Made by a program: the position numbers and the translations under genes. From assembly GCA_004297655.1 (NCBI GenBank), contig SCUN01000054.1:1-42895 (forward strand): a stretch of DNA of 42,895 nucleotides, given 5' to 3'. Shown here one piece after another: positions 5,431 through 24,518 of the stretch (position 1 is its first letter; every line of letters begins with the position of its first letter). This DNA comes from Acidobacteriota bacterium (lineage in GTDB: Bacteria; Acidobacteriota; Vicinamibacteria; Vicinamibacterales; SCN-69-37). The notes below the pieces were generated by a model that worked only from the letters and a program-made list of their open reading frames with translations, ran no database searches and was not told the DNA's origin.

Positions 5431-5452
5431 GGCTTCAGCTCCGCGACGTTCT

Positions 5453-5785
5453 TCATAACTTCAGCTCCGCTTCGAGGCCGTCCGTCATGTTGCGGAGCGC
5501 CGCGACCGATTGCCTGAGCGCGCGATGGCCCGCCGCCATCAACTTGAAGTGTTTCTTGCGGCGCCCGCCCCGCTCCGCCGTCGGCTCGCCGAACCGGCTC
5601 GCGACGAGGCCCTTGTCTTCGAGCCGTTCGAGCGTCTTGTAGACGGCGCCGAGCGACACGTCGCGGCCGGTGCGCGCCGTGATGTCGTCGCAAATCGACA
5701 CGCCGTACGGCTCGCCGCCCTCCCGCGCTAATCGCGTCAGCGACAGCAAGACCAACTGTTCGAAATCGCCCAGGATCATCTCCAT
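5453..5785 (-). CDS. PadR-family transcriptional regulator
   Basis: 110 aa: FEQLVLLSLTRL...PYGVSICDDI...SLGAVYKTLERLEDKGLVASRFGEPTAERGGRRKKHFKL. It lies immediately upstream of the permease. Confidence 0.9.
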   Translation of the reverse strand: MEMILGDFEQLVLLSLTRLAREGGEPYGVSICDDITARTGRDVSLGAVYKTLERLEDKGLVASRFGEPTAERGGRRKKHFKLMAAGHRALRQSVAALRNMTDGLEAELKL

Positions 5786-5810
5786 GGCGATATGTTAGAC
5801 GATGTCGAGG

Positions 5811-6641
5811 TTATCGAGGTTCGATCGAGAGAGCGAGGTCCAGCGCCGGGGCCGAATGCGTGAGGGCGCCGACCGAAATATCGTCCACGCCGGTCTCGGC
5901 GATCGCCCGCACACGGCCGAGCGTCACGCCCCCTGACGCTTCGAGACGAGCGCGGCCGCCGACCAGTTCCACGGCCGCGCGCATTTCGTCGAGCGTCATG
6001 TTGTCGAGGAGAATCCGGTCGGCGCCGGCAATCAGCGCCGCCTCGACCTGCGGCAGCGTGTCCGCTTCAACCTCGACCTCCGCGCCCTTCGGGAGCAACC
6101 CGCGGACGCGCGCCACGGCGATCCCGACATCCCCGACCGCGGCGAGATGGTTATCCTTAATAAGAGCCATCTCCGACAGGTCCATCCGGTGATTCGCGCC
6201 GCCGCCCATGCGCACGGCGTACTTCTCGAGCGCCCGCCACCCCGGCGTCGTCTTGCGGGTGTCGAGGATGCGCGCGCGTGTGCCGCGAACCGCGTCCACG
6301 AACGCCGCCGTGAGCGTCGCGATGCCCGACAGACGCTGCAGGAAATTGAGCGCGACGCGCTCGGCCGACAGCAATCCGCGCGTCGTGCCGTCGATCACCA
6401 TGACGACATCCCCGGCGCCCACCACCGCGCCGTCTTCGGCCAGGACGGCGATCTCGCACCGCGGATTGAGCAAACGAAACGCGACCCCGGCCGCTTCGGT
6501 TCCGGCGATCACTCCGGGCTGACCGGCGGCAATCGTCGCCCGTCCCCTCGCCTCCGCCGGCACAATCCCCTTCGTCGTCACATCATCGAACGCGCGATCT
6601 TCGTCGAGCGCGGCGCGCACGAAGCCGACGAGGTCGGTCAT
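5811..6641 (-). CDS. nadC: Nicotinate-nucleotide pyrophosphorylase (carboxylating)
   Basis: MTDLVGFVRAALDEDRAFDDVTT...RKTTPGWRALEKYAVRMGGGANHR.DLSEMALIKDNH is classic NadC. The start ATG 6641 overlaps the nadA stop (ATGA at 6638-6641). The longer ORF to 6812 is an Arg/Asp-rich artefact inside nadA. Confidence 0.9.
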   Translation of the reverse strand: MTDLVGFVRAALDEDRAFDDVTTKGIVPAEARGRATIAAGQPGVIAGTEAAGVAFRLLNPRCEIAVLAEDGAVVGAGDVVMVIDGTTRGLLSAERVALNFLQRLSGIATLTAAFVDAVRGTRARILDTRKTTPGWRALEKYAVRMGGGANHRMDLSEMALIKDNHLAAVGDVGIAVARVRGLLPKGAEVEVEADTLPQVEAALIAGADRILLDNMTLDEMRAAVELVGGRARLEASGGVTLGRVRAIAETGVDDISVGALTHSAPALDLALSIEPR

Positions 6642-7615
6642 CGCGAAGCGCTCAGTTCGAGCTCGGTGGACGGCGAGCCGCCGATCGTGACCATCCGCTC
6701 GATCGCCACGCGCGCGCGCGACGCGATCGCCGGCGGCACCGTCACGCGATGCGTCATGGTCTCGAGCGCATGCAGCACTTTCGGCAGCGTCGTGAGCTTC
6801 ATGAACGAGCACTCGGCTTCAGCGCTCGCCGGAAGGAACGTCTTCGAAGGATGCATCAGCCGCAGCCGATGCAGAATGCCGGTTTCCGTCGCGACGATGA
6901 ACGAAGACGAGGGCGATTCGGCTGGGCGACGCATCATCCCCTCGGTCGAGAGCATGTGCGCGTCGAGGCTGTCCACGTCGCCCGCCGAGATGGCTTCAAC
7001 CACGTTCGTCGAACAACCGCACTCCGGGTGAACGAGCAGCTCCGCGCCCGGATGCGAGGCGCGCTGTTTCGCGAGCGACTCGGGCGTGATGCCGGCATGC
7101 ACGTGGCACTCGCCCATCCATACGCGGATGTTCTCGCGGCCGGTCACGCGGCGCACGTGGGCGCCGAGAAAGAAGTCCGGAAGAAACAGAATCTCCTGCG
7201 ACGCGGGAATCGCGTTGACGACGTCGACGGCGTTGCCCGATGTGCAGCAGTAATCGCTTTCGGCTTTCACCTCGGCCGACGTGTTGACGTACGACACGAC
7301 CACGGCGCCCGGATGCTCGGCCTTCCAGCGACGGACGTCTTCGGCCGTAATCGTGTCGGCGAGCGAACAGCCGGCGCCGAGGTCCGGAAGGAGCACGGTC
7401 TTGTCGGGCGAGAGAATCGCGGCAGTTTCCGCCATGAAGTGGACGCCGCAGAAGACGATGACCCTGGCGCTCGTCCGGGCGGCCTCGCGGCTGAGACCGA
7501 GGGAATCACCGACGAAATCGGCCGCGTCCTGGACCTCCGGCCGCTGGTAGTTGTGCGCGAGGATGACGGCGCCGCGCTCCCGCGCCAACACGCGGACCCG
7601 TTCCGGTAAGTGCAT
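6638..7615 (-). CDS. nadA: Quinolinate synthase
   Basis: 325 aa: ILAHNYQ..EVQD.ADFVGDSL...FCGVHFMAETA...VSYVNTSAEVKA...CCTSGNA...HPECG...GD matches NadA motifs. Confidence 0.92.
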   Translation of the reverse strand: MHLPERVRVLARERGAVILAHNYQRPEVQDAADFVGDSLGLSREAARTSARVIVFCGVHFMAETAAILSPDKTVLLPDLGAGCSLADTITAEDVRRWKAEHPGAVVVSYVNTSAEVKAESDYCCTSGNAVDVVNAIPASQEILFLPDFFLGAHVRRVTGRENIRVWMGECHVHAGITPESLAKQRASHPGAELLVHPECGCSTNVVEAISAGDVDSLDAHMLSTEGMMRRPAESPSSSFIVATETGILHRLRLMHPSKTFLPASAEAECSFMKLTTLPKVLHALETMTHRVTVPPAIASRARVAIERMVTIGGSPSTELELSASR

Positions 7616-7658
7616 CCTGCTAGTTTAATGAATTGCAAAATCGCTCTATCGCAAAATG

Positions 7659-7676
7659 GCAAGATTCCAATCTTGC
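7659..7676. promoter_or_regulatory. Perfect palindrome GCAAGATTCCAATCTTGC in the repeat-rich AT-richer spacer upstream of nadA, downstream of the topoisomerase gene
   Basis: 8-bp arms with a 2-nt centre. It is flanked by direct repeats GCAAAAT (7635-7641, 7651-7657) and ATCTTG(C) (7670-7676, 7678-7683, 7694-7700). It could be an operator of the NAD genes or a terminator stem. Confidence 0.35.
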
Positions 7677-7705
7677 AATCTTGAATTGAAGCGATCTTGC
7701 GATCC

Positions 7706-10132
<2,427 letters not shown>

Positions 10133-10207
10133 TCCGAAATACTAGTACCGAAATGGACATCTATGCGAGGCCCCCCGGGCGTAGGCTCGTGCTAGCCTAG
10201 GCTTCCT

Positions 10208-11260
10208 TTGAGCACAGCTCCCCAATTCGCCACCCCCGCCGTCTTCAAGCATGTTCTCGAAAAACGGGTTGAAGGGTTCCTGGCCAACCGCCGGACCACC
10301 GACAGTCCGTTGATGTACGCCAAGGCCATCGGCCTCTTCGCGGCCTCGGCCCTGTCCTACTACTTTCTGGTCTTTCGGACCGATTCGATCTGGGCGGCGC
10401 TCGCGTGGGGCTTCGTCCTGGCGATGGCGCTCGTGGGCATCGGCTTCAACGTGCAGCACGACGGCAATCACGGGGGCTTCTCGCGCTACAAGTGGGTCAA
10501 TCGGTCCGCGGGCTTCACGCTGGATCTGATCGGCGCCAGCTCGTACTTCTGGGCCGATAAGCACAACCACAACCATCACGTGTACACGAACATCCCGCAC
10601 GAGGATGCCGACATCAACCTCGGCCCGCTCGCGCGGCTCAGCGAAGAGCATCGCTGGCTCTGGTTCCATCGCTTCCAGCACATCTATCTCTGGGCGCTCT
10701 ACGCGTTCGTGCATCTCCGGTATCTCTTCACCGACCTGCACCGCATGTCGGGCCTCAAGAAGGACGGGCTGACGGAGAACTACCCGAGGGGCTGGGATCT
10801 CGTCGCGATGATCGCCGGCAAGGTCATCTTCCTGACGTTCGCGTTCGCGATCCCGCTGACGCAGCACTCGTTCGGCCGTGTGGCCGGCATCTACGTCCTC
10901 GTCTCGATGGCGATGGGCATCGTCTTCAGCACCGTCTTCCAGCTGGCGCACACCGTGGACAACGTCGAGCACCCGCTGCGCGGCGCGACCGATCACAACG
11001 AGTGGGTCATCCATCAGATCCGGACGACGGCGAATTTCGCACCGCGGAACTGGTTCCTGACGTTCACGCTCGGCGGCTTGAACTTCCAGCGCGAGCATCA
11101 TCTCTTCCCGAAGATCTCGCACGTCCACTACCCGGCGATCTCGAAAGTCGTTCGCGCGGTCTGTCAGGAATACAAAGTGGATTACTGCGAAAGCCCGTCG
11201 GTCTGGGAAGCGATCCGCTCGCACTATCGCTTCGTAAAAGCGATGGGCGCCAAACCGTAG
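10208..11260 (+). CDS. Membrane fatty-acid desaturase, front-end (DesD-like) type without a cytochrome b5 domain
   Basis: 350 aa. His boxes are HDGNH, HNHNHH and QREHHLFP. A Q-x-x-H-H third box is the hallmark of front-end/delta-6-type desaturases. The start is TTG. Confidence 0.85.
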   Translation: MSTAPQFATPAVFKHVLEKRVEGFLANRRTTDSPLMYAKAIGLFAASALSYYFLVFRTDSIWAALAWGFVLAMALVGIGFNVQHDGNHGGFSRYKWVNRSAGFTLDLIGASSYFWADKHNHNHHVYTNIPHEDADINLGPLARLSEEHRWLWFHRFQHIYLWALYAFVHLRYLFTDLHRMSGLKKDGLTENYPRGWDLVAMIAGKVIFLTFAFAIPLTQHSFGRVAGIYVLVSMAMGIVFSTVFQLAHTVDNVEHPLRGATDHNEWVIHQIRTTANFAPRNWFLTFTLGGLNFQREHHLFPKISHVHYPAISKVVRAVCQEYKVDYCESPSVWEAIRSHYRFVKAMGAKP

Positions 11261-11313
11261 GGGGACGGACCCCTTTTCCACAACTTTTCAACAGTTGGGG
11301 ACAGGTCTCGGGC

Positions 11314-11781
11314 CTATCGAGTCCGCCGCTGTCGCATTACTTCATACACAGCGAGAGCAACGCTAGTTGACAGATTGAGCGACCGCACGTGTTCGGAGAG
11401 GATCGGTATCTTCACCAAGCGGTCGTTGTATTTCTCGCGCACTTCGCTCGGAAGCCCGCCCGTCTCTCGCCCGAAGATCAGAACAGCATCCTCCGACTCG
11501 CCAAGTGGCGCGTCCCACAACTCGCGCGTCGCCTTCGTCGAGAAGAACCACGGCTCGCCGAGCGCGGGCAGCGCTCGTTCGAACGCGCCCCAATCGGGCC
11601 AGACACGCAGATCGACGTGCTCCCAGTAGTCGAGTCCCGCGCGCTTGACCTGGCGATCGTCGAGCGAGAAGCCGAGCGGTTCGACCAGATGCAGCGTGGC
11701 GCCCACCGCCAGGCACGTTCTGCCGGCGTTGCCGGTGTTCCAGTGAATCTCGGGATGGACGAGGACGACGTGGATCGCCAC
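11314..11781 (-). CDS. trmL: tRNA (cytidine/uridine-2'-O)-methyltransferase, SpoU/TrmL family
   Basis: 155 aa: IHVVLV.PEI..NTGN.GRTC...LHLV.PLGF...KRAGLDYW......LIFG.E..GLP......IP.....RSLNLS.SVA is TrmL-like. Confidence 0.88.
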   Translation of the reverse strand: MAIHVVLVHPEIHWNTGNAGRTCLAVGATLHLVEPLGFSLDDRQVKRAGLDYWEHVDLRVWPDWGAFERALPALGEPWFFSTKATRELWDAPLGESEDAVLIFGRETGGLPSEVREKYNDRLVKIPILSEHVRSLNLSTSVALAVYEVMRQRRTR

Positions 11782-15417: not shown

Positions 15418-16236
15418 TCACCGTTGAACAGCAACGACGTGCGCCTGGATTTTGCCATCCACGACGCCTCGGCCAAACCGCTGTGAAATCGCGGCAGCGC
15501 CGGCGTCCGTGACTTCGGCCAGCCGGGACGCGTCGCGCGCCTCGATTTCGTTTCGGAGCGGTGTGCCCTGGCAATAGGCCATGGCGACCGCTTCGGCAGA
15601 GCTGGCCCGGCTGCGTGCCGCCACTGTGACGATCTCCGGCGGAGCGGCGAACCCGCCGCCTCCGAGGTCTCGCTCGATGGCCGCCCGGTCGTGGTAGCCG
15701 TGCGGGGTGCGCGCCAGGAAGCGAGGCGGATCGTCCGGAAACAGCGGCTCGAGCGCGGCGGTGACGACATCCGCAAATTCGTTCTCTCTAATGTGATCCC
15801 ACACGTTGAAGATGAACACGCCGCCGGGTCTGAGAACTCGGCGCGCCTCCGCAAACGCCGCGGCCTTGTCCGGGAAGAACATGGCGCCGAATTGGCATAC
15901 GACTGCGTCAAACGTCTGGTCCTCAAACGGCAAGTGCATGGCGTCTGCCTGACGCCACTCCACCGGCCGCTGCAGTCCGAGCGTCATCGCGTGGTCGAGC
16001 ATCGCCTGATTCAAATCCGTCGCCACGATCGCGACGTGATCAGGCAACCTGGAGGCCAGAGCGCGTGTGAGGACGCCGGTGCCAGCGGCAATTTCGAGAA
16101 CCCGGGCCGGGGATCGCGATGCGAGCCGAGCCGCCAGATCCGTCGCGTAGGGCTCGAAGATCAGCGGAACGAGGTATGTCTCGTAAAGACTCGGAATCGA
16201 ACCGGCGAAGAGTTTGTCGGAATCAGGGCGGTTCAT
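15418..16236 (-). CDS. Class I SAM-dependent methyltransferase (Methyltransf_11/UbiE-like) with a C-terminal extra domain
   Basis: Motif I VLEIAAGTGVLT, motif post-I VATDLN, FDAVVCQFG, LRPGGVFIFNVW. It starts 9 nt after the stop of the FAD subunit gene. Confidence 0.85.
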   Translation of the reverse strand: MNRPDSDKLFAGSIPSLYETYLVPLIFEPYATDLAARLASRSPARVLEIAAGTGVLTRALASRLPDHVAIVATDLNQAMLDHAMTLGLQRPVEWRQADAMHLPFEDQTFDAVVCQFGAMFFPDKAAAFAEARRVLRPGGVFIFNVWDHIRENEFADVVTAALEPLFPDDPPRFLARTPHGYHDRAAIERDLGGGGFAAPPEIVTVAARSRASSAEAVAMAYCQGTPLRNEIEARDASRLAEVTDAGAAAISQRFGRGVVDGKIQAHVVAVQR

Positions 16237-16245
16237 GATGTGAGG

Positions 16246-17271
16246 TCAGAGTATCTGCCTCGCCAGACTCAACCGCTTCGCGCGCATGTCGTCGCCGCGG
16301 GCTTCGCGAAGGGCGCTCGTCACGAGCGACTTGACCATCTTCTTCCGCCAGACGAGCTCGAAGTCGGTGTTGTCCATCGGCTTCGCGATGTCGTACGCCG
16401 CGGCGGCCGCGGCGGCGATCGCCTCATCAGTCAACTTCTGGCCGATCAGGAGCGCTGACGCTTTCTCCGAAAGGAGCGGCCGCGAGGCGACGGCGCCGAG
16501 CGCGATGCGGGCGTGTTCGACGACGCCGCCGTCCAATTTGAGCGCGATGGCCGCGGCGCCCACGGGAAAGTCGAAACTGCCGCGGCGGCGCAGCTTCCAG
16601 TACGAGGTCGTCCACCCTCGCAGATTCGGCAACGACACAGACGTCAGCAGCTCGTCGGCCCGCTTCGTGAGATACGACATGCCGTCGTTGTTGTAGAAGT
16701 CATCCACGGCGACATCGCGCGAACCCGAGGCCGACACGAGCGTGACCTTCGCGCCGAGCGCGAGGAGCATCGGCGCGGTGTCGGTCGACGAGACGGCGAG
16801 ACACCGCTTGCTTGACGTCGCCACCCAGCACGTCGAGCCGTCCTTCTTCATGCAGTACCCGATCGCCTTGCGCCACTCCTCGGACTGGTCGTAATAGGTG
16901 CAGCGCGTATCGAGGCACAGATTGCCGCCGATCGTGGCCATGTTCCGAAGATGCGGCGTCGCGACCTGCGCGGCGGCCTGCCAGAGACCGCGCACATTCT
17001 TCTGCAGCAGCTCATCCCCCACCAGCGTCGAGAGCGTCGTCCCCGCGCCGATGATGCGTGAGCCGCCGGGGCCGGGCATCATGACGGCCAGCTCGCGAAT
17101 GCCGCGAAGGCCGACGAGCGTCTTCGGCTTCCACTGCCCGCGCTTCATGTTCGGCAGCACATCCGTGCCGCCCGCCACGATCATCATCGTCTCCGGCGAC
17201 TGGCCGAGAATGTCGACGGCTTCTTCGACGGACGCGGGCGCGTAGTACTTGAAAGATGGAAGGCGGAGCAT
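16246..17271 (-). CDS. FAD-binding (medium) subunit of a xanthine dehydrogenase-family molybdoenzyme, with a Cys-rich insertion (HcrB-like)
   Basis: 341 aa: AGGTDVLP, ATIGGNL (FAD_binding_5), CO_deh_flav_C-like C-terminus. The insertion after GGNL reads C-LDTR-C-x15-C-x7-C-x8-C (Cys119/124/140/148/157). Confidence 0.88.
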   Translation of the reverse strand: MLRLPSFKYYAPASVEEAVDILGQSPETMMIVAGGTDVLPNMKRGQWKPKTLVGLRGIRELAVMMPGPGGSRIIGAGTTLSTLVGDELLQKNVRGLWQAAAQVATPHLRNMATIGGNLCLDTRCTYYDQSEEWRKAIGYCMKKDGSTCWVATSSKRCLAVSSTDTAPMLLALGAKVTLVSASGSRDVAVDDFYNNDGMSYLTKRADELLTSVSLPNLRGWTTSYWKLRRRGSFDFPVGAAAIALKLDGGVVEHARIALGAVASRPLLSEKASALLIGQKLTDEAIAAAAAAAYDIAKPMDNTDFELVWRKKMVKSLVTSALREARGDDMRAKRLSLARQIL

Positions 17272-17272
17272 G

Positions 17273-19753
17273 CTACTTGGCCTCCCTCGCGATGGTGATG
17301 CCGGCCTTCACTTCCGTGCCGGCGTCGGCGACGCGCTTCTTCCTCTTCGGATCGTTCGCGGCGCGGCCGTCGCCGCCTTCCCACGGCGGCGTGACCATCA
17401 GCGTCTCGGGCCACGGAATCGACGGGAACGAATCCGGCCCGTAACGCGCGGGCTTGCCCGCGGCTTTCGCGGTCAGCGCTTTCAGGATCTTCTCGGGCGT
17501 CACGGGAATCTCGTCGACGCGCACGCCGACGGCGTCGTACACGGCGTTGGCGACCGCCGGCATGATCGGCAGCAGCGGCCCCTGCCCGACTTCCTTCGCA
17601 CCGAACGGTCCGGCCGGATCCGGGTCTTCGATGAGATCCGTGAAGATGTTCGGCATGTCGAGGCTCGTGAGGCTCTTGTACTCGAGGATCGACGGGAACT
17701 TGTGCACGAGCGCGTTCGAGAGTTTCGCGGGCAGCCGGCGGAACGCCGACTCCTCCATCAACGCCTCGCCCAACCCCATGTAGACGCCGCCCTCGACCTG
17801 GCCGCGCACGAGCGTCGGGTTGAGCGCGCGGCCGATGTCATGGCCGATCCACACATTCGGCACGGTGAGCCAGCCCGTTTCCGGATCGACTTCCACTTCG
17901 ACGATCGCCGCGCTATACGAATACGTCGGCGTCGGTCCGACGCCGCCGCCCTTGTACCGCGCCGGCGGCTTCGGCGGCGTGTAGGAACCGGTCGTGCCGA
18001 TCGTGCCAAACTTCGCTTCGGCAAAGACAACAGCCTCCTGAAAACTACAGCTCTTCTCCGCGCCCTCCGCGTGAGAGACACGCCCGTCTGCGAAGACGAG
18101 TTGCTCTTTGGGAACGCTGAGCTTCTCCGCAACCGCCTCCGCGAGAAGATCCCTCGCGCGCTCCGCCGCCTGGATCGCGGCGTTGCCCATCATCAGAGTC
18201 ACTCGGCTCGAATACGACCCGAGATCGACGGGCGTGAGATCGGTGTCACCGGTGACGACACGAATGTCGAAGGTCTCGAGACCGAGGATCTCGGCCACGC
18301 ACGCGGCGAGCACGTCATCCGATCCCTGGCCGATTTCCGTCGCTCCGCAAAACGCGGTGACGCCGCCGCTTCTGTCGAGCTTCAGCTGCACGCCCGAGTG
18401 CGGCAGATCGTTCCAGTTGATCGGCAAACCGGCGCCGGAAAGATACGACGAGCACGCGATGCCGACGCCGCGCCCGTACGGCAGCTTTCTGAACTTGTTC
18501 TTCCAGTCGGACCGCGCGACCACCTTGCGAATGCACTCCGCGAGGCCGATCGTGCCGATCTTCATGAAGTTCGCCGTCAGGCTGTTGGGCGGCGCCACGA
18601 TGTTCAGCCGCATCTCGGCCGGATCGAGCTTCAGCGTCTCGGCGATCTTGTCGAGCTGCACTTCCTGGCCGAACCGCGCCTGCGGCGTGCCGTGCCCCCG
18701 CTTCGGCCCGCACGCCGGCTTGTTCGTGAACACGCGGCAGCCGCGGAAACGGTACGTGGGAATCTCGTACGTCACCGTCTGCAGCGCGCCCGTGTAGAAC
18801 GTGCTGGCTACGCCGTACGATCCGTAGGCGCCGCCGTCGAGCAGTGTCTCGAGATCGAGACCGGTGATCTTGCCGTCCTTCGTGACACCCGCGCGGAACT
18901 TCATCTGCACGGGATGCCGGCCGCGATGGCAGTAGAACACCTCCTCGCGGCTGAGCGTGATCTTGACCGGACGATCCAGCATCATCGCCGCTTTGGCGAC
19001 GACGATCTCGTGGTTGAAGGGATCGCTCTTGCCGCCGAAGCCGCCACCGTTGGGCGTCGCGATCACGCGGATGTGCGCGGCAGTCATCGCGAGCGTCTTC
19101 GCGAGCGCGCGATGGAGATAGTGCGGCGTCTGCGTGCTCGAGTAGACGACCAGCTTGCCGTCCGGATCCTTCAGCGCGACGGTCGCGTGCTGCTCCAGCG
19201 GCAGGTGCGTGCTGCCCTCGAAGAAGAACGTATCTTCGAAGATGTGATCCGCCTTCGCGATCGCCGCGTCGACGTCGCCGAACTGCATCGCCACGGCTTT
19301 GTGGATGTTCCCGTCATCGCCATATTCGTGAATACGCGGTTCAGGGTTCAGGAGACTCTCTTCAGGGGTGCCGAAGGTTCTTAGTAGTTCGTACTCGACT
19401 TCGATGAGCTTCGCCGCTTGATCGGCAATCGACTCCGTTCGCGCGATGACGGCGGCAACGGGATCGCCGACGTGGCGGACTTTGTCCTGACAGAGCGCAT
19501 GTTCGTCATGGCTGACCGGCAGGACGCCGTAAGGAATTGGAAATGTCGATCCGGTGAGCGTAAGCAGGACGCCAGGAAAGGCGTCGGCCTTCGACGTATC
19601 GATGCGCACGATCCGCGCATGCGGGTGTGGCGACCGCAGCAGCCGGCAATAGACCATGCGCGGCAGCGCGATGTCGTCGGCGAACTTCGTCTGTCCGGTG
19701 ACTTTCGCGCGGCCGTCGACGCGGCGGCGCGGGCGGCCAATGACACCGGCCAT
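17273..19753 (-). CDS. Molybdopterin-binding (large) subunit of a xanthine dehydrogenase-family enzyme (HcrA-like position)
   Basis: 826 aa starting from ATG 19753: MAGVIGRPRRRVDGRAKVTGQTKFADD..., GGGFGGKSD, GHGTPQ, GAKEVGQGPL. The ATG overlaps the small-subunit stop (TAATG). The ORF-track extension to 20125 is an out-of-frame overlap artefact. There is a roughly 60-aa C-terminal tail beyond TPEKILKAL. Confidence 0.9.
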   Translation of the reverse strand: MAGVIGRPRRRVDGRAKVTGQTKFADDIALPRMVYCRLLRSPHPHARIVRIDTSKADAFPGVLLTLTGSTFPIPYGVLPVSHDEHALCQDKVRHVGDPVAAVIARTESIADQAAKLIEVEYELLRTFGTPEESLLNPEPRIHEYGDDGNIHKAVAMQFGDVDAAIAKADHIFEDTFFFEGSTHLPLEQHATVALKDPDGKLVVYSSTQTPHYLHRALAKTLAMTAAHIRVIATPNGGGFGGKSDPFNHEIVVAKAAMMLDRPVKITLSREEVFYCHRGRHPVQMKFRAGVTKDGKITGLDLETLLDGGAYGSYGVASTFYTGALQTVTYEIPTYRFRGCRVFTNKPACGPKRGHGTPQARFGQEVQLDKIAETLKLDPAEMRLNIVAPPNSLTANFMKIGTIGLAECIRKVVARSDWKNKFRKLPYGRGVGIACSSYLSGAGLPINWNDLPHSGVQLKLDRSGGVTAFCGATEIGQGSDDVLAACVAEILGLETFDIRVVTGDTDLTPVDLGSYSSRVTLMMGNAAIQAAERARDLLAEAVAEKLSVPKEQLVFADGRVSHAEGAEKSCSFQEAVVFAEAKFGTIGTTGSYTPPKPPARYKGGGVGPTPTYSYSAAIVEVEVDPETGWLTVPNVWIGHDIGRALNPTLVRGQVEGGVYMGLGEALMEESAFRRLPAKLSNALVHKFPSILEYKSLTSLDMPNIFTDLIEDPDPAGPFGAKEVGQGPLLPIMPAVANAVYDAVGVRVDEIPVTPEKILKALTAKAAGKPARYGPDSFPSIPWPETLMVTPPWEGGDGRAANDPKRKKRVADAGTEVKAGITIAREAK

Positions 19754-20265
19754 TATTTTGTTGCGCGGGGCTGAAGCCCCGCGGCTACTTTCGTCTGGAG
19801 TTTCTGAACCGCGCTCTCGACGGCTTCCACAATCTGCAGGTAACCCGTGCAGCGGCAGAGGTTGCCGGAAAGCGCTTCCTTGATCTGTTCCCGCGTGGGG
19901 TTCGGCTCGCGATCGAGCAGTGCTTTCGCTGTGACGATGATGCCGGGCGAGCAGTAGCCGCACTGCGATCCGCCGAGATCGGCCATCGCGTCCTGCAGCG
20001 GATGCAGTTCGTCGCCGGCCGCGATGCCTTCGATCGTGGTAACGCTGCGTCCGCCGCATTCGACGGCGAGCGCCAGGCACGACAGCACCGGCTGGCCGTC
20101 GACGAGCACGGCGCACGCGCCGCACTCGCCCAGTTCGCAGCCGTGCTTGGTGCCGGTGAGTTGAAGGTCTTCGCGGAGGACTTCGAGCAGGGTCTTCGCC
20201 GGATCGACGAGGGCGTCAATCGGCTCGCCGTTGACGGAAAGCGACAGCCGGAATGAATTCGACAT
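19753..20265 (-). CDS. [2Fe-2S]-binding (small) subunit of a xanthine dehydrogenase-family enzyme (HcrC/CoxS-like)
   Basis: 170 aa: CELGECGACAV...SC (plant-type cluster) and CGYCSPG...CRCTGY (second cluster). The last roughly 12 codons are encoded by a REP-like hairpin. Confidence 0.92.
   Translation of the reverse strand: MSNSFRLSLSVNGEPIDALVDPAKTLLEVLREDLQLTGTKHGCELGECGACAVLVDGQPVLSCLALAVECGGRSVTTIEGIAAGDELHPLQDAMADLGGSQCGYCSPGIIVTAKALLDREPNPTREQIKEALSGNLCRCTGYLQIVEAVESAVQKLQTKVAAGLQPRATK
19764..19788 (-). repeat. REP-like GC hairpin (type 1), embedded in the small-subunit 3' coding end
   Basis: The minus strand reads GTAGCCGCGGGGCTTCAGCCCCGCG, identical over 25 nt to 41990-42014 on the plus strand. 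8-bp stem, 4-nt loop (19764-19783). Confidence 0.8.
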
Positions 20266-20277
20266 GCCGCGCGGGGG

Positions 20278-21228
20278 CTAGAACTCGACGTTGGACGGGT
20301 TTTGCGGCGGCGTGCCGATGGCCTTCGCGGCATTGGCCGCCGCGGAAGCCGCCTGTTCGCCGGCCGAAATCGCCTGAAGCTTGGCGCGCTCGATCGTCTG
20401 CTGCGACACCTTGCGAAGGTCCTTGGTGATGCGCACCCACGACAGCGCCTTCACGATCCACTTGGTCGGATCGAAGTGCCACGCGCGCACGCCGTTGCGG
20501 TAATCACCCGGAAACTGGTGATGGAAGTTGTGGTACCCCTCGCCGAGCGTGATGAGCGCGACGATGCCGTTGTCGCGGGCGGAGATGGCCTTGTTGTACG
20601 GCTTCCGGCCGAACATGTGCGCGAGCGAGTTGATCGAGAACGTCGAGTGGTACTGCACGACGAGCCGGATGAATCCGGCCCACAGCACCGCGCCGACCGG
20701 ATCGCCCCACGCCATGCCGATCGCCGCCGGCAGCACCGCGACCATCAGGACCGTCAGCGGGATGTAGTACTTGTGCTGGAACGCGACGAGCGGATCCTTG
20801 TAGAGATCGGCCACGTTGTCGAGGTTGCGCAGCGGGTCCTTGAACAGCACCCAGCCCACATGCGACCACCAGAAGCCCTTCATCGAGTTGTAGGGGTCTT
20901 CGTCTTCGTCCGTGTCGGCGTGATGGCGGCGGTGGTCCGACGACCAGTTGATCACCGAGTTCTGCACGCCGGCCGCGCCGAAGAGCAGGTAGAACAGCCG
21001 CAGCGGCCACGCCGCGCGATAGGTCTTGTGCGAAAAGAGGCGATGATAGCCGCCGGTGATCGAGAGCCCCGCGCACAGGAACCAGATCACCGCCAGGAGG
21101 ACGTTTTCCCAGACGATGCCGGCCCAGAACGAGTAGATCAGCGCGGCGGCCGCGACGACATGGGCGGTCGCGATGAAAATCGTGTTCACCCAGTCGATCT
21201 GGCGGTCTTCGGACGTTGCATGGTGCAT
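20278..21228 (-). CDS. Acyl-CoA (stearoyl-CoA type) delta-9 desaturase
   Basis: 316 aa. His boxes HRLFSH, HRRHH, HNFHHQFP. The WSHVGW and GEGYHN motifs are typical of the membrane delta-9 family. It lies 12 nt upstream of the small-subunit gene. Confidence 0.9.
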   Translation of the reverse strand: MHHATSEDRQIDWVNTIFIATAHVVAAAALIYSFWAGIVWENVLLAVIWFLCAGLSITGGYHRLFSHKTYRAAWPLRLFYLLFGAAGVQNSVINWSSDHRRHHADTDEDEDPYNSMKGFWWSHVGWVLFKDPLRNLDNVADLYKDPLVAFQHKYYIPLTVLMVAVLPAAIGMAWGDPVGAVLWAGFIRLVVQYHSTFSINSLAHMFGRKPYNKAISARDNGIVALITLGEGYHNFHHQFPGDYRNGVRAWHFDPTKWIVKALSWVRITKDLRKVSQQTIERAKLQAISAGEQAASAAANAAKAIGTPPQNPSNVEF

Positions 21229-21263
21229 AACCTTTAAATTGTCCCACGGTACGGGGCCGGGGG

Positions 21264-22640
21264 CTATCCCTTCCTGAGCAGGTGCCTTAAGTCGTGACGC
21301 CCCAACAGGCGGTAGAACGTCCGGCGGCTCACCCCAAGCGCGCGCGCGGCGCCCAGGCGGTTGCCCCCCGACCGGGCCAACGCCTCTTCGATGCGCTCGC
21401 GCGTGATCGACCGTTCGGCGGGCTCGGGCGGCGGCATCGAGCCCCCGGAAAACCGCACGTCGTGTTCTTCAATAGTTGAGCCGTGGGCCAGCATGGCGGC
21501 GCGTTCGATCACGTTCCGCAACTGGCGCACGTTGCCCGGCCAGGCTGACGTGACGAGGATCCGCTCCGCGGCCGGCGACAGCCCCGTGAGCGGCTTGTGC
21601 ATCCGCTCGCCGCATTCCTTGATGAACCGCGCGGCCAGCGTCGGAATGTCGTCCGGCCGGTCGCGAAGCGCGGGCACGTGCAGCTCCGCGATGTTCAGCC
21701 GGAAATACAGGTCGCTCCGAAATCGCCCGGCGCGCACCTCAGCCTCGAGATCGCGATTGGTCGCGGCGAGAATCGTCACGTCGACGCGCCGCGGCTCGAC
21801 GCTGCCGACGCGATACAGCTCGCCCGACTCGAGCACGCGCAGGAACTTTGCCTGCATCGCGAGCGACAGCTCGCCCACCTCGTCGAGAAACAACGTGCCG
21901 CCGTCGGCGCGCTCGATGAGACCCGGTTTCGCGTCCACCGCGCCGGTGAACGCGCCGCGCACGTGGCCGAACAGCTCCGACTCGACGATCGTCTCGGCGA
22001 CGGCCGCGCAGTTGATCGCGACGAACGGCTTCGCCGCGCGCCGCCCGCACTGATGCATCGCGCGCGCGACGAGTTCCTTCCCGACGCCCGTCTCCCCCGT
22101 GATCAACGACACCCGCGCGTACGGCGCCATGCGCCGGATCAGATCGAAGAGTTCGCGCATCGCCGCGCTGCGGCCGACCAGTCCCTGGAACGAGCTCTGC
22201 TCGGCGATCCGAAGTTCGAGGTCGGCGATCTGCTGATGACGCTCGAGGTCGGCGCGAATGCCGGCGAACCGATGCTCGAGATACTTGGTGTCGAGCGGCT
22301 TCTCGAGAAAATCGAGCGCGCCCAGCTTGATCGCCTCGAATCGCTCCTCGGTAATCTGCGTCGATCCCGTCATCAACATCGTCTTGCAGCTCGGCCAGCG
22401 CTCGCGAATCACCTGGAGCACGTTGAGACCATCGATGCCGGGCATGTTGAGGTCGACCATGACGACGTCGATGCCGCCGTGCTCGAGGCGCGCGAGGCCG
22501 GCCTCGCCCGACGACGCGGTTTCGACATCGAAGTTCCAGCGCGTGATGAATCGGCGCAGCACCGTGAGCACGCCGGGGTCATCGTCCACGACGAGCACGG
22601 TGGGTCGACGGACCTGCTGGGTATGTGCCACGTGCGCCAT
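21264..22640 (-). CDS. Sigma-54-dependent response regulator (NtrC family: receiver + AAA+ + Fis HTH)
   Basis: Receiver VLVVDDD...DLNMPGIDG, Walker A GETGVGKE, the GAFTGA motif, and C-terminal HTH AARALGVSRRTFYRLL. I chose ATG 22640 (MAHVAHTQQ...). The 17 extra codons up to 22691 have poor GC3 and cover the TGGCAC repeat region. Confidence 0.9.
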   Translation of the reverse strand: MAHVAHTQQVRRPTVLVVDDDPGVLTVLRRFITRWNFDVETASSGEAGLARLEHGGIDVVMVDLNMPGIDGLNVLQVIRERWPSCKTMLMTGSTQITEERFEAIKLGALDFLEKPLDTKYLEHRFAGIRADLERHQQIADLELRIAEQSSFQGLVGRSAAMRELFDLIRRMAPYARVSLITGETGVGKELVARAMHQCGRRAAKPFVAINCAAVAETIVESELFGHVRGAFTGAVDAKPGLIERADGGTLFLDEVGELSLAMQAKFLRVLESGELYRVGSVEPRRVDVTILAATNRDLEAEVRAGRFRSDLYFRLNIAELHVPALRDRPDDIPTLAARFIKECGERMHKPLTGLSPAAERILVTSAWPGNVRQLRNVIERAAMLAHGSTIEEHDVRFSGGSMPPPEPAERSITRERIEEALARSGGNRLGAARALGVSRRTFYRLLGRHDLRHLLRKG

Positions 22641-22662
22641 TGTGGCACGACTGGTGGCACAG

Positions 22663-22678
22663 TGGCACATGTCTGGCG
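22663..22678 (+). promoter_or_regulatory. Candidate sigma-54 (-24/-12) promoter for the CheY-like regulator / guaD operon
   Basis: TGGCACatgtcTGGCG has GG at 22664-5 and GC at 22676-7, the canonical spacing of TGGCAC-N5-TTGCW. It is one of five TGGCRC repeats (starts 22643, 22655, 22663, 22674, 22684). It lies about 75 nt upstream of ATG 22752. Confidence 0.45.
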
Positions 22679-22751
22679 CACTCTGGCGCATATTCCCTTG
22701 GGGAGCCCGTACGGCACGCGCCTTGCTCTATTGAAGGCGGAGACACGATTC

Positions 22752-23186
22752 ATGAGGCTTCCCAGTTTTCTGCAACCCGCGCCGCCCGCCGAGAAGCCGG
22801 CGGATGTTCAGCCCGCCCCAAAGGACAAGACCTGCGTGCTGCTCGTCGATGACGAGCCGGCGATCAGATCGCTCTTTGCCGCCTCGCTCCGGCGCGACGG
22901 CTACCACGTCGTCGAAGCCGGCGACGGCAAGGAAGCCGTCGAAGTCGCGAAGAAGGCCGAGCGGGTGGATCTCGTCGTGACCGACATCCGCATGCCGAAG
23001 ATGGACGGCGTCGCGATGGCCAACGCCCTGCGCGAGGCGCAGCCCGGCATTCGCATCGTGTTCGTGAGCGGCTATCCGATGGATCTCGACGCGCTCGGTC
23101 CGAACTCGACGCTGTTGAGCAAGCCGTTCCTGCGCGCCGACCTGATGAAGGCGGTGCACGATATTTCCGGGACCAGAACGACGTAA
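22752..23186 (+). CDS. Single-domain CheY-like response regulator with a short Pro/Ala-rich N-terminal leader
   Basis: 144 aa: VLLVDDEPAIRSL......DLVVTDIRMPKMDG......VFVSGY......LSKPF. It is the only real part of the 529-aa ORF 21597-23186. Confidence 0.85.
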   Translation: MRLPSFLQPAPPAEKPADVQPAPKDKTCVLLVDDEPAIRSLFAASLRRDGYHVVEAGDGKEAVEVAKKAERVDLVVTDIRMPKMDGVAMANALREAQPGIRIVFVSGYPMDLDALGPNSTLLSKPFLRADLMKAVHDISGTRTT

Positions 23187-23195
23187 CCTAACGGC

Positions 23196-24518
23196 GTGAG
23201 CATTCACGCCATCCGGGGGCGGCTGGTCTGGTTCACGGCCGACCCGTTCGTCGACGGCGCGCGATCGCTGCGCCACGAGGCCGACGGGATCGTCGCGATC
23301 GATGCCGGGCGCATTACCCGCGTCGGCCCGGCGGCGGAGATTTTCGCCCACCTCCCGGAGAATTGCCCAGTCACCCACTACCCCGGTTGCCTGATCTCGC
23401 CGGGATTCATCGACACGCACGTGCACTACGCGCAGACCGGCATCGTCGGCGCCCATGGCGCGCAACTGCTCGACTGGCTGACCGAGTACGCGTATCCCGC
23501 CGAGGCGGAGATGGCGGACCGGCCGAAGGCCGACGCGATGGCGCGCGCGTTCTGCGACGAGCTGATTCGCAACGGCACGACGACCGCGCTGGTGTTTTGC
23601 ACGGTCTTCCCCGAGTCGGTGGACGCGCTCTTCGAGGAAGCCGCACGGCGGAATCTGCGCCTCATCGGCGGCAAGGTGTTGATGGATCGAAATGCGCCGG
23701 CCGCGCTTCTCGACACGGCGCGGTCGTCGTACGACCAGTCGAAGGCGCTGATTAAGAAATGGCACGGCCGCGGCCGCGCGAGTTATGCGATCACGCCGCG
23801 GTTTGCGCCGACATCAACACCCGAGCAACTCGAACTGGCGGGCGCGCTGTGGGCCGAGCATCCCGATGTGTACGTGCACAGCCATTTGTCTGAAAATGCC
23901 GCCGAGTGCGCCTGGGTGCGCGAGCTATTCCCGGATAGCGACCGCTATATAGATGTGTACGAATCATTCGGGCTGACGGGGCGGCGCGCGGTGTACGCGC
24001 ACGGTGTTCACCTGGCCGACGAGGACTTCGCGCTCTGCCATCACACCGGCACGGCGCTCGCGCACTGCCCCACCTCGAATCTCTTCCTCGGCAGCGGCCT
24101 CTTCAATCTCGGCGCGGCGACGCGCGCGGACCGGCGCGTGCATGTGGGGCTGGGGACGGACATCGGCGCCGGCACCAGCTTTTCGATCCTGGCCACGCTC
24201 AACGAAGCCTACAAAGTGGCGCAGATGACGGGGAGCGCGCTCGACGGCGTCCACGGCTGGTACCTGGCGACGCGAGGCGCCGCGGAGGCGCTCGATCTGG
24301 CCGGCACAATCGGTTCGCTCGAACCGGGCTGCGAGGCCGACATGGTCGTAGTCGATCCTCAGGCGACGCCGTTGCTCAAGCTCCGCGCGGAGCGGTGCCA
24401 ATCAATCGAAGAGCTGTTGTTCGTACTGATGACGCTCGGCGACGATCGCGCGATCCGCGCGACGTATGTTGCCGGGGCTAAAGCCCCGGCCTACGTCACC
24501 ACTTCCAATCCGCAATAA
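23196..24518 (+). CDS. guaD: Guanine deaminase
   Basis: 440 aa: PGFIDTHVHYAQ, ITPRFAPTST, HSHLSEN..E, HCPTSN.FLGSG, LGTDIGAG is the amidohydrolase/guanine deaminase signature. GTG start 9 nt after the regulator's stop. The last roughly 13 codons read through a REP-like hairpin and overlap the convergent gene by 23 nt. Confidence 0.9.
   Translation: MSIHAIRGRLVWFTADPFVDGARSLRHEADGIVAIDAGRITRVGPAAEIFAHLPENCPVTHYPGCLISPGFIDTHVHYAQTGIVGAHGAQLLDWLTEYAYPAEAEMADRPKADAMARAFCDELIRNGTTTALVFCTVFPESVDALFEEAARRNLRLIGGKVLMDRNAPAALLDTARSSYDQSKALIKKWHGRGRASYAITPRFAPTSTPEQLELAGALWAEHPDVYVHSHLSENAAECAWVRELFPDSDRYIDVYESFGLTGRRAVYAHGVHLADEDFALCHHTGTALAHCPTSNLFLGSGLFNLGAATRADRRVHVGLGTDIGAGTSFSILATLNEAYKVAQMTGSALDGVHGWYLATRGAAEALDLAGTIGSLEPGCEADMVVVDPQATPLLKLRAERCQSIEELLFVLMTLGDDRAIRATYVAGAKAPAYVTTSNPQ
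24471..24499 (+). repeat. REP-like GC hairpin (type 2: GCCGGGGCTaaAGCCCCGGC + CTACGTCAC)
   Basis: 9-bp stem at 24471-24490 followed by CTACGTCAC, the same tail as at 42042-42050. Confidence 0.75.

Follow-up and report, generated by a model that had tools for sequence, protein, structure and literature searches.

The window analysed here is the whole 42,895-bp contig SCUN01000054.1 of an Acidobacteria metagenome-assembled genome (MAG) whose nearest relatives are Vicinamibacterales. The element under study is a three-gene operon on the minus strand for a molybdenum enzyme resembling HcrCAB, the 4-hydroxybenzoyl-coenzyme A (CoA) reductase (HCR) of Thauera aromatica. It lies between a desaturase gene and a methyltransferase gene, downstream of a sigma-54 activator gene; these six open reading frames (ORFs), from 15418 to 22691, all have the same orientation. 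In a preliminary description, made from the sequence alone, the five genes from the desaturase to the methyltransferase had been proposed as an uncharacterised functional module. The features of the locus are as follows (FAD, flavin adenine dinucleotide; SAM, S-adenosylmethionine; aa, amino acids).

19753-20265, minus strand: small [2Fe-2S] subunit, HcrC-like, 170 aa (Pfam Fer2 and Fer2_2)
17273-19753, minus strand: large molybdopterin subunit, HcrA-like, 826 aa (Pfam Ald_Xan_dh_C, MoCoBD_1 and MoCoBD_2)
16246-17271, minus strand: FAD subunit, HcrB-like, 341 aa (Pfam FAD_binding_5 and CO_deh_flav_C)
16801-16917, minus strand: Cys loop of the FAD subunit with C119, C124, C140, C148 and C157 (alignment to 1RM6_B and codon mapping)
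17582-17584, minus strand: codon of Gln724 of the large subunit (HMMER alignment to 1RM6_A)
20278-21228, minus strand: delta-9-type membrane acyl-CoA/acyl-lipid desaturase, 316 aa (Pfam FA_desaturase)
15418-16236, minus strand: class I SAM methyltransferase of the Methyltransf_11/25 type, 272 aa (Pfam)
21264-22691, minus strand: NtrC-type sigma-54 activator (Response_reg, Sigma54_activat and HTH_8 in Pfam and NCBIfam)
22712-22727, plus strand: sigma-54 -24/-12-like element CGGCACGCGCCTTGCT, with one mismatch to TGGCAC-N5-TTGCW
22752-23186, plus strand: stand-alone response-regulator receiver (translation)
23196-24518, plus strand: guanine deaminase (NCBIfam TIGR02967, 566 bits against a cut-off of 375)

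The desaturase, small-subunit, large-subunit, FAD-subunit and methyltransferase genes are spaced by 12, -1, 1 and 9 nucleotides (nt), the ATG of the large-subunit gene overlapping the TAA of the small-subunit gene in the sequence TAATG, and the activator gene ends 35 nt upstream of the desaturase gene. The order and gaps given for these genes in the preliminary description were reproduced, and every one of its family assignments was upheld by Pfam and NCBIfam, including the guanine deaminase beyond the activator, which scored above the TIGR02967 cut-off.

Conservation of the gene order

For the analysis of synteny one genome per species was scanned, which yielded 80 loci with a large subunit 68-92% identical to that of the window. 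The loci span Vicinamibacterales, Terriglobia, the groups 'gp2' and 'gp6', about 50 Pyrinomonadaceae/Blastocatellia and single representatives of Krumholzibacteriia, Planctomycetota, Beta- and Gammaproteobacteria. Six window proteins were compared with the loci by tblastn, and loci with enough flanking DNA were regarded as informative for the genes outside the operon. The order small-large-FAD was kept in 69 of the 69 loci in which all three subunits were detected. The desaturase was found in 3 of the 70 loci with enough upstream DNA (L001, L003 and L004; large-subunit identity 87-92%), and the methyltransferase in none of the 65 whose downstream flank was long enough, even with matches up to E = 1e-3 admitted, and in none of all 80. 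Because of these two counts the module idea is refuted; missing synteny of the desaturase and the methyltransferase in other genomes had been named in the preliminary description as the outcome that would overturn it. The co-occurrence proposed there was found in part, the desaturase adjoining the molybdenum enzyme in the closest relatives and the methyltransferase in none of them.

Closer metagenome contigs (L081, L082, L086, L088 and L089) were compared in addition to the 80 loci. L081 (94% identity) carries guanine deaminase and response-regulator genes followed by a divergent desaturase-small-large-FAD set, with neither activator nor methyltransferase. In L082 (88%) the activator gene lies directly upstream of the three subunit genes, and desaturase and methyltransferase are both missing. 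L086 and L089 have the desaturase and the operon and lack activator and methyltransferase, and in L004 a PaaK-like CoA ligase gene is inserted between the desaturase and small-subunit genes. Every combination of desaturase and activator thus occurs among the close contigs, and the methyltransferase never. What is conserved as a functional unit is the operon of three genes, small-large-FAD, at 16246-20265 on the minus strand; the five-gene set is a juxtaposition of one narrow lineage, and its methyltransferase part is specific to this contig.

In the Pyrinomonadaceae (L030-L080) the operon is often interrupted by insertions. Small ORFs of about 90-115 aa (clusters c14 and c17) stand between the large- and FAD-subunit genes and space them by about 50 nt to 2.8 kb, and L044, L054 and L075 have a 1055-aa ORF between the small- and large-subunit genes. 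L016 combines a TetR gene, a large-subunit gene and a PaaK-like ligase gene (7190-11777), and no small- or FAD-subunit gene was detected across its 18-kb locus.

Family identity of the molybdenum enzyme

Hidden Markov model (HMM) profiling and inspection of the active site were performed, as the preliminary description had proposed, and they bear out its HcrCAB-like assignment: the enzyme groups with HCR and not with xanthine dehydrogenase (XDH), carbon monoxide dehydrogenase or aldehyde oxidoreductases. The best NCBIfam model of the large subunit was TIGR03194 (HcrA) with 800.6 bits, below the cut-off of 994.55, followed by XdhA with 526 bits. For the FAD subunit TIGR03195 (HcrB) was best with 292.7 bits (cut-off 404.55), and XDH models reached at most 170 bits. 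The small subunit scored 179.3 bits with TIGR03193 (cut-off 257.8), where HcrC, XdhC, PucE and glyceraldehyde dehydrogenase gamma models were nearly equal (about 179-182 bits) and do not discriminate between families. Among PDB sequences the best matches were chain A of 1RM6 for the large subunit (617 bits) and chain B for the FAD subunit (193.7 bits), others being far behind; by BLASTP the large subunit is only 42% identical to Thauera HcrA.

The extra Cys cluster noticed earlier in the FAD subunit coincides exactly with the codons of C119-C157 and aligns residue for residue with the loop of 1RM6_B. C124, C140, C148 and C157 correspond to the Cys quartet with which the loop of Thauera HcrB holds an additional [4Fe-4S] cluster, and they are kept in all the sequences listed from 63 FAD subunits of related loci. 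C119 is a non-ligand Cys and is replaced by Leu in Pyrinomonadaceae. A strict regular expression for the loop missed 46 FAD subunits. In 45 of them the cause was the change of C119 to Leu, and in that of L015, which is over-extended, a loop insertion; the ligand Cys, all four, are kept in them. To our knowledge HCR was the only characterised member of the family with such a loop.

Substrate-binding positions were mapped with bovine XDH segments that had been verified against the PDB (exact match for residues 795-931 and 1248-1285). Bovine Glu802 has no equivalent in the window enzyme (a gap next to Ser), Arg880 is replaced by Gly (Gly322 in the window) and Phe914 by His, and Thauera HCR has the same pattern at all three positions. 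Because Glu802 is absent, Arg880 is Gly and Phe914 is His, the enzyme is not regarded as a xanthine dehydrogenase. A xanthine dehydrogenase of purine catabolism had been the parsimonious alternative of the preliminary description; it would follow guanine deaminase in the pathway and be controlled by the NtrC-type activator. The guanine deaminase gene does lie only about 2 kb away and is kept there in close relatives, and the activator gene stands between the two gene sets. The guanine deaminase gene is, however, divergent and has its own -24/-12-like promoter, and beyond L001 a guanine-deaminase-like ORF (cluster c28) was found only in L015 and L024, several genes off. The XDH models scored 525.7, 514.4, 415.2 and 292.3 bits for the large subunit against cut-offs of 780, 916, 784 and 850, and the Glu needed for hydroxylation (PMC10420851) is Gln. 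Together with the missing equivalents of Glu802 and Arg880, this led us to reject the purine-catabolic enzyme as extremely improbable.

Judged by its sequence, the enzyme is best classified as a xanthine oxidase (XO) family member of the HcrCAB type that lies outside the curated HCR family and is not an HCR orthologue. Its large subunit belongs to a widespread clade, highly frequent in Acidobacteriota, with more than 120 clusters at least 79% identical in public data and thousands of homologues in metagenomes and MAGs; identities within the clade are 68-94% across Vicinamibacterales, Terriglobia, Pyrinomonadaceae and a few Proteobacteria.

Glutamine at the catalytic position

Gln724 of the large subunit occupies the conserved catalytic Glu position (E726 in Thauera HcrA, E1261 in bovine XO). 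The motif reads GAKEVGQGPL in the window, GAKEASEGML in Thauera and SKAVGEPPL in bovine XO, and the Glu three residues upstream is retained (E721 in the window, E723 in Thauera). The regular expression GAKE[VA]GQG matched 79 of 81 large subunits of the clade, the other two, which have long C-terminal tails, being missed, and of 120 close homologues 117 have Gln at the catalytic position. The 124 full-length representatives of clusters at 50% identity include 102 with Glu and 3 with Gln. The catalytic residue Glu1261 is the general base in xanthine dehydrogenase; in the family this Glu is essential for hydroxylation and likely acts as proton donor in reductive reactions (PMC10420851). With Glu replaced by Gln in the clade, its chemistry or proton delivery may therefore differ from that of the Thauera enzyme.

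A rough distance-based neighbour-joining (NJ) tree, which has no support values and is indicative only, places the window clade beside the other Gln-containing cluster, P0366; the Glu-bearing P0362 joins these two next. Thauera HcrA falls outside a wider radiation of uncharacterised 'GAKE.GE' clusters, together with P0379, a cluster with 61% identity to HcrA, and the window clade is not sister to HcrA. The nearest representatives at 50% identity carry only automatic '4-hydroxybenzoyl-CoA reductase' names.

Neighbourhoods of orthologues and proposed function

Genes of aromatic metabolism adjoin the operon in several lineages. BoxB (868 bits against a cut-off of 499), BoxC (910 against 712) and a BzdR/BoxR-type regulator (353 against 204) scored above curated cut-offs next to orthologues 70-76% identical in L018, L020, L023, L027 and L028, which belong to Terriglobia, gp2 and Betaproteobacteria. 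As box genes form about one small cluster per genome and the adjacency recurs in three lineages with differing arrangements, it is, in our judgement rather than by calculation, unlikely to be due to chance. Adjoining PaaK-like ligase genes were found in 7 loci, and TetR regulator genes directly upstream in 13. L028 has an adjacent benzoate-CoA ligase family gene (767 against 375 bits) and a flavodoxin gene, with homologues of both, assigned by clustering, at the same place in L027. In these two Betaproteobacteria MAGs the flavodoxin gene (L027 4743-5318, L028 4736-5212, plus strand) precedes the benzoate-CoA ligase gene and the HCR-like operon, with its product as a candidate for donating low-potential electrons to the enzyme. 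L018 continues into genes for an enoyl-CoA hydratase and a PaaH-like dehydrogenase, and for P0366, the Gln-type cluster next to the window clade, the operon also encodes a 2-oxoacid:ferredoxin oxidoreductase and a PaaK-like ligase. Altogether an aryl-CoA ligase or Box context was found in 10 of 80 orthologous loci, and where a pathway adjoins it is the aerobic Box pathway.

Directly upstream of its TetR-HCR-like-Box cluster, L018 also has six tandem paralogues of 162-182 aa (3098-6642, minus strand); one of them was scanned and gave no NCBIfam match.

The contexts of the orthologues suggest a reductive dehydroxylase for hydroxy-aryl-CoA that yields benzoyl-CoA or an analogue. A reductive or hydroxylating molybdenum enzyme with an unknown substrate had been the first hypothesis of the preliminary description; its reductive, HCR-like form survives and is narrowed by the box and aryl-CoA ligase genes of the orthologues. 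We consider it moderately probable that the enzyme is a hydroxy-aryl-CoA reductive dehydroxylase of the HcrCAB type, that the desaturase and methyltransferase genes are merely recent neighbours and that the activator drives the divergent genes. In the proposed mechanism, a ferredoxin or flavodoxin whose gene lies elsewhere would deliver low-potential electrons to the FAD subunit at its extra [4Fe-4S] cluster, from where they would reach the molybdopterin site via FAD and two [2Fe-2S] clusters. At this site an aromatic acyl-CoA bearing a hydroxyl group, by default 4-hydroxybenzoyl-CoA, would be reductively dehydroxylated to benzoyl-CoA or a close analogue, and the product would feed the aerobic BoxABC pathway in several lineages. 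Substrate, direction and oxygen tolerance are in this scheme what we infer for the enzyme.

A number of observations weigh against the assignment as a hydroxy-aryl-CoA dehydroxylase. All three subunits score below the HCR cut-offs, the identity to Thauera HcrA is low, the catalytic Glu is replaced, and the clade is not sister to HcrA in the tree. No gene for a CoA ligase, a Box protein, benzoyl-CoA reductase (bcr), ferredoxin or flavodoxin was present among the window ORFs scanned, and tblastn of the PaaK-like ligase, the TetR regulator and BoxB gave no match in the window; the earlier remark that the rest of an anaerobic benzoyl-CoA pathway is missing from the window thus stands. The other family-matching ORFs scanned in the window are housekeeping genes, for GyrA, NadA, proline dehydrogenase, MacB-type permeases, a PPIase, a rhodanese, an M28 peptidase, a TonB receptor and DinB. 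Housekeeping genes (panBC, gatCA and maf) also surround the operon in about 50 Pyrinomonadaceae/Blastocatellia loci. In Pyrinomonadaceae it lies between panBC and gatCA, where the sole related neighbour is a MocA-like cytidylyltransferase gene (133 bits, below the cut-off of 186), which fits a cytosine-dinucleotide molybdenum cofactor. The host lineages are aerobes, and the Thauera enzyme is oxygen-sensitive. As to the adjoining genes, the gaps of 12 and 9 nt and the lack of terminator-like sites where the genes join would permit co-expression of the desaturase and the methyltransferase with the molybdenum enzyme.

Several of these points would equally be expected if the HCR-like architecture served another substrate or direction, such as another aryl-CoA, a free phenolic as with the urolithin dehydroxylases Ucd and Uxd, or a non-hydroxylating redox reaction with new chemistry by way of the Gln. 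The low scores and the 42% identity to HcrA, the clade-wide Gln with its rarity among the 124 cluster representatives (3, against 102 with Glu), the many uncharacterised clusters between the window clade and HcrA in the NJ tree and the housekeeping context in Pyrinomonadaceae all fit this explanation, as do the associated ligases, which are PaaK-like and not of the classical 4-hydroxybenzoate-CoA ligase type. Phenol dehydroxylases of the XO family that act on non-CoA substrates are moreover known (PMC12771579, PMC12658268). On the other side, the adjacency of BoxB, BoxC, BoxR and benzoate-CoA ligase genes in three lineages indicates a benzoyl-CoA product, the mapped active-site positions match those of Thauera HCR, and the [4Fe-4S] entry point for electrons is retained. 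Another substrate or direction is accordingly treated as an alternative of rather low probability, and the hydroxy-aryl-CoA dehydroxylase is preferred.

In the literature no description of this clade or of a link between HCR and Box was found, only incidental mentions. That the clade is functionally new, either as an oxygen-compatible dehydroxylase channelling hydroxy-aromatic CoA thioesters into Box or as an enzyme acting on a substrate new to the XO family, is put forward tentatively and appears to us to have a minor, though appreciable, chance of being correct.

Desaturase and methyltransferase

The translated desaturase has the His boxes HRLFSH, HRRHH and HNFHH, in agreement with the three-box pattern HxxxxH, HxxHH, HxxHH, and its only PDB matches were mouse and human SCD1 (4YMK, 194 bits; 4ZYO, 190 bits). 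It adjoins the molybdenum enzyme only in L001, L003, L004, L081, L086 and L089. About 15 desaturase clusters were found at 72-84% identity, after which identity falls below 65%, against more than 120 clusters of the molybdenum large subunit at 79% or more. The gene is an ordinary lipid desaturase gene fixed at this chromosomal spot in one narrow lineage. A second, unrelated desaturase gene at 10208-11260 on the plus strand (350 aa; Pfam FA_desaturase, 124 bits; no NCBIfam match) adjoins gyrA, about 9 kb from the first.

The methyltransferase gave no match to CMAS (PF02353) and in Pfam only generic matches to Methyltransf_11, Methyltransf_25 and UbiE, in line with the earlier remark that it is UbiE/Methyltransf_11-like and not Cfa-like; its PDB matches were generic small-molecule methyltransferases and covered only the SAM-binding core. 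The G+C content at third codon positions is 0.75, compared with 0.78-0.91 in the neighbouring genes. Proteins of this family have a near-invariant length of 272 aa and 75-81% identity, and are common to Acidobacteria and Betaproteobacteria (Usitatibacter, Burkholderiales). The genes around three sampled orthologues (L083-L085; 75-78% identity) form unrelated arrays and are small stand-alone 'stress/detox' genes of the cupin, glyoxalase, SnoaL and DinB types. Horizontal mobility together with a constrained function is suggested for the family, and the downstream methyltransferase gene is probably a mobile stand-alone gene. In this genome the desaturase and methyltransferase genes are probably co-transcribed with those of the molybdenum enzyme, to which their products are not functional partners.

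Lipid tailoring, in which the three activities would desaturate, methylate and reduce, had been the second hypothesis of the preliminary description. It found no support, since the methyltransferase is not Cfa/CMAS-like, its orthologues have unrelated contexts and L088 has a desaturase-patatin-CMAS set without the molybdenum enzyme. L088 (6712-11165; desaturase 64% identical) has the same DinB-PD40-guanine deaminase anchor, followed by genes for the desaturase, a patatin phospholipase and a CMAS methyltransferase, plausibly a candidate trio for lipid remodelling.

More generally, the five genes could form a functional module in this lineage, either by lipid tailoring or with the desaturase fed electrons by the Fe-S/FAD chain of the molybdenum enzyme. 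The tight packing (12, -1, 1 and 9 nt), its junctions free of terminator-like sites, would agree with this, and so would the recurrence of desaturase-small-large-FAD with gaps of 12-16 nt in about six closely related contigs. Such a module is nevertheless very improbable in view of the absence of the methyltransferase from 65 of 65 informative loci and from all close contigs and of the desaturase from 67 of 70, the L082 operon that has no desaturase, the L088 set and the CoA ligase gene that splits desaturase from small subunit in L004, as well as the nature of the methyltransferase and its Betaproteobacteria orthologues in unrelated contexts.

Regulation

The pattern TGGCAC-N5-TTGCW was used for sigma-54 sites, and the matches were compared with shuffled sequences. 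The window had 11 matches where 13.1 were expected and thus no excess over chance, and no -24/-12 match was found upstream of the desaturase or small-subunit genes. The best site, CGGCACGCGCCTTGCT, precedes the divergent response-regulator gene by 25 nt, and the guanine deaminase gene follows that gene. Both genes are also paired in L081 and L082, where an equivalent element (YGGYAC-N5-TTGCT) is found on the minus strand at 6417-6432 and 5919-5934, respectively, 20-30 nt upstream of the response-regulator gene. When ten sequences were scanned with the relaxed pattern, the window, L081 and L082 gave one match each and the other seven loci none; L081 keeps the promoter-like element without an adjacent activator gene. 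Since the sole good -24/-12-like site faces away from the operon and is kept in L081 and L082, the activator most plausibly serves the divergent response-regulator and guanine-deaminase (purine/nitrogen) genes. The earlier placement of the five genes downstream of a sigma-54 activator was right in position; the only -24/-12-like element, however, faces the response-regulator and guanine-deaminase genes. In the divergent intergenic region (22625-22700) a cluster of TGGCAC/TGGCGC repeats (GTGGCACGAC, TGGTGGCACAG, TGGCACATG and TCTGGCGCACTCTGGCGCA) was observed, and these could be putative activator-binding sites.

No sigma-70-like promoter was found between 14000 and 24000, and terminator-like sites were present there, none of them at gene junctions. 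A purely regulatory unit would be an alternative, in which read-through from the activator gene co-expresses desaturase, molybdenum enzyme and methyltransferase under one signal (for instance nitrogen or oxygen limitation) with no shared substrate. The six co-oriented genes have gaps of at most 35 nt with no sigma-70-like or sigma-54-like promoter detected between them, and in L082 the activator gene lies directly upstream of the small-subunit gene. Consensus scans are, however, weak evidence in Acidobacteria; L081, L086 and L089 keep the operon without the activator, and 13 loci of other lineages have the TetR gene directly upstream. We therefore regard common regulation of this kind as improbable.

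Implications

The claim of a new lipid or redox module falls; what is left is the operon for an HcrCAB-like enzyme, which belongs to a widespread acidobacterial clade whose catalytic position holds Gln. As seen from the source names of the homologues, members of the clade are routinely labelled '4-hydroxybenzoyl-CoA reductase' by KEGG-style pipelines and by those of JGI, and generically by NCBI, and such labels may invite a reading as a marker of anaerobic aromatic degradation. Caution with the label is advisable because the clade lies outside the curated HCR family, is devoid of the catalytic Glu and has the aerobic Box pathway as its informative context. If the proposed dehydroxylation of phenolic acyl-CoA in aerobes is correct, the view of how soil Acidobacteria process lignin-derived phenolic acids would change, and a reaction type considered 'strictly anaerobic' would be placed in aerobic soil bacteria that rank among the most abundant. 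Mechanistic enzymology would, in that case, gain a natural Glu-to-Gln variant of a Birch-type molybdenum reductase.

Comparison with known systems

With HcrCAB of Thauera aromatica (PDB 1RM6/1SB3) and HbaBCD of Rhodopseudomonas palustris the window operon shares the gamma-alpha-beta gene order. The four-Cys insertion in the FAD subunit, Gly at Arg880 and His at Phe914 are likewise found in the window enzyme, and an association with aryl-CoA ligase genes or benzoyl-CoA metabolism is seen for orthologues of its clade in 10 of 80 loci. It differs from HcrCAB in the 42% identity of the large subunit, in scores below the equivalog cut-offs for all three subunits, in the Gln at the position of Thauera E726 and in not being sister to it in the NJ tree. 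The pathway context of the clade is aerobic Box and not benzoyl-CoA reductase, ligase and ferredoxin genes are absent from the window, and the hosts are mostly aerobic Acidobacteriota, unlike the setting of Thauera HcrCAB.

XdhABC of Rhodobacter capsulatus and of E. coli and PucCDE of Bacillus have the superfamily and domain set in common with the window enzyme, near which a guanine deaminase is encoded. In contrast to these bacterial XDHs, the window enzyme lacks Glu802, Arg880 and the catalytic Glu, possesses the extra [4Fe-4S] loop and scores far below the cut-offs.

Of the adjoining genes, the desaturase shares three His boxes with stearoyl-CoA/acyl-lipid delta-9 desaturases (SCD1 and the bacterial DesC type), but here it is merely a neighbour, with no link to the molybdenum enzyme outside one narrow lineage. 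The route to 10-methyl fatty acids in actinomycetes, which employs a Cfa-like methyltransferase and an FAD reductase, offers only a formal analogy, in that a methyltransferase and a flavoprotein are encoded near a desaturase; the window methyltransferase is not of the Cfa/CMAS type, the flavoprotein is the medium subunit of the molybdenum enzyme, and the synteny is not conserved.

The urolithin dehydroxylases Ucd and Uxd of Enterocloster are three-component enzymes of the XO family that reductively remove a phenolic hydroxyl group, and the FAD-binding subunit of Uxd carries a further 4Fe-4S domain (PMC12771579, PMC12658268). They were compared by description and not by sequence; their substrates are free phenolics and their hosts gut Firmicutes, whereas the box and CoA-ligase context of the window clade indicates CoA thioesters. 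Ucd and Uxd imply that reductive phenol dehydroxylation within the XO family is broader than HCR (PMC12771579, PMC12658268).

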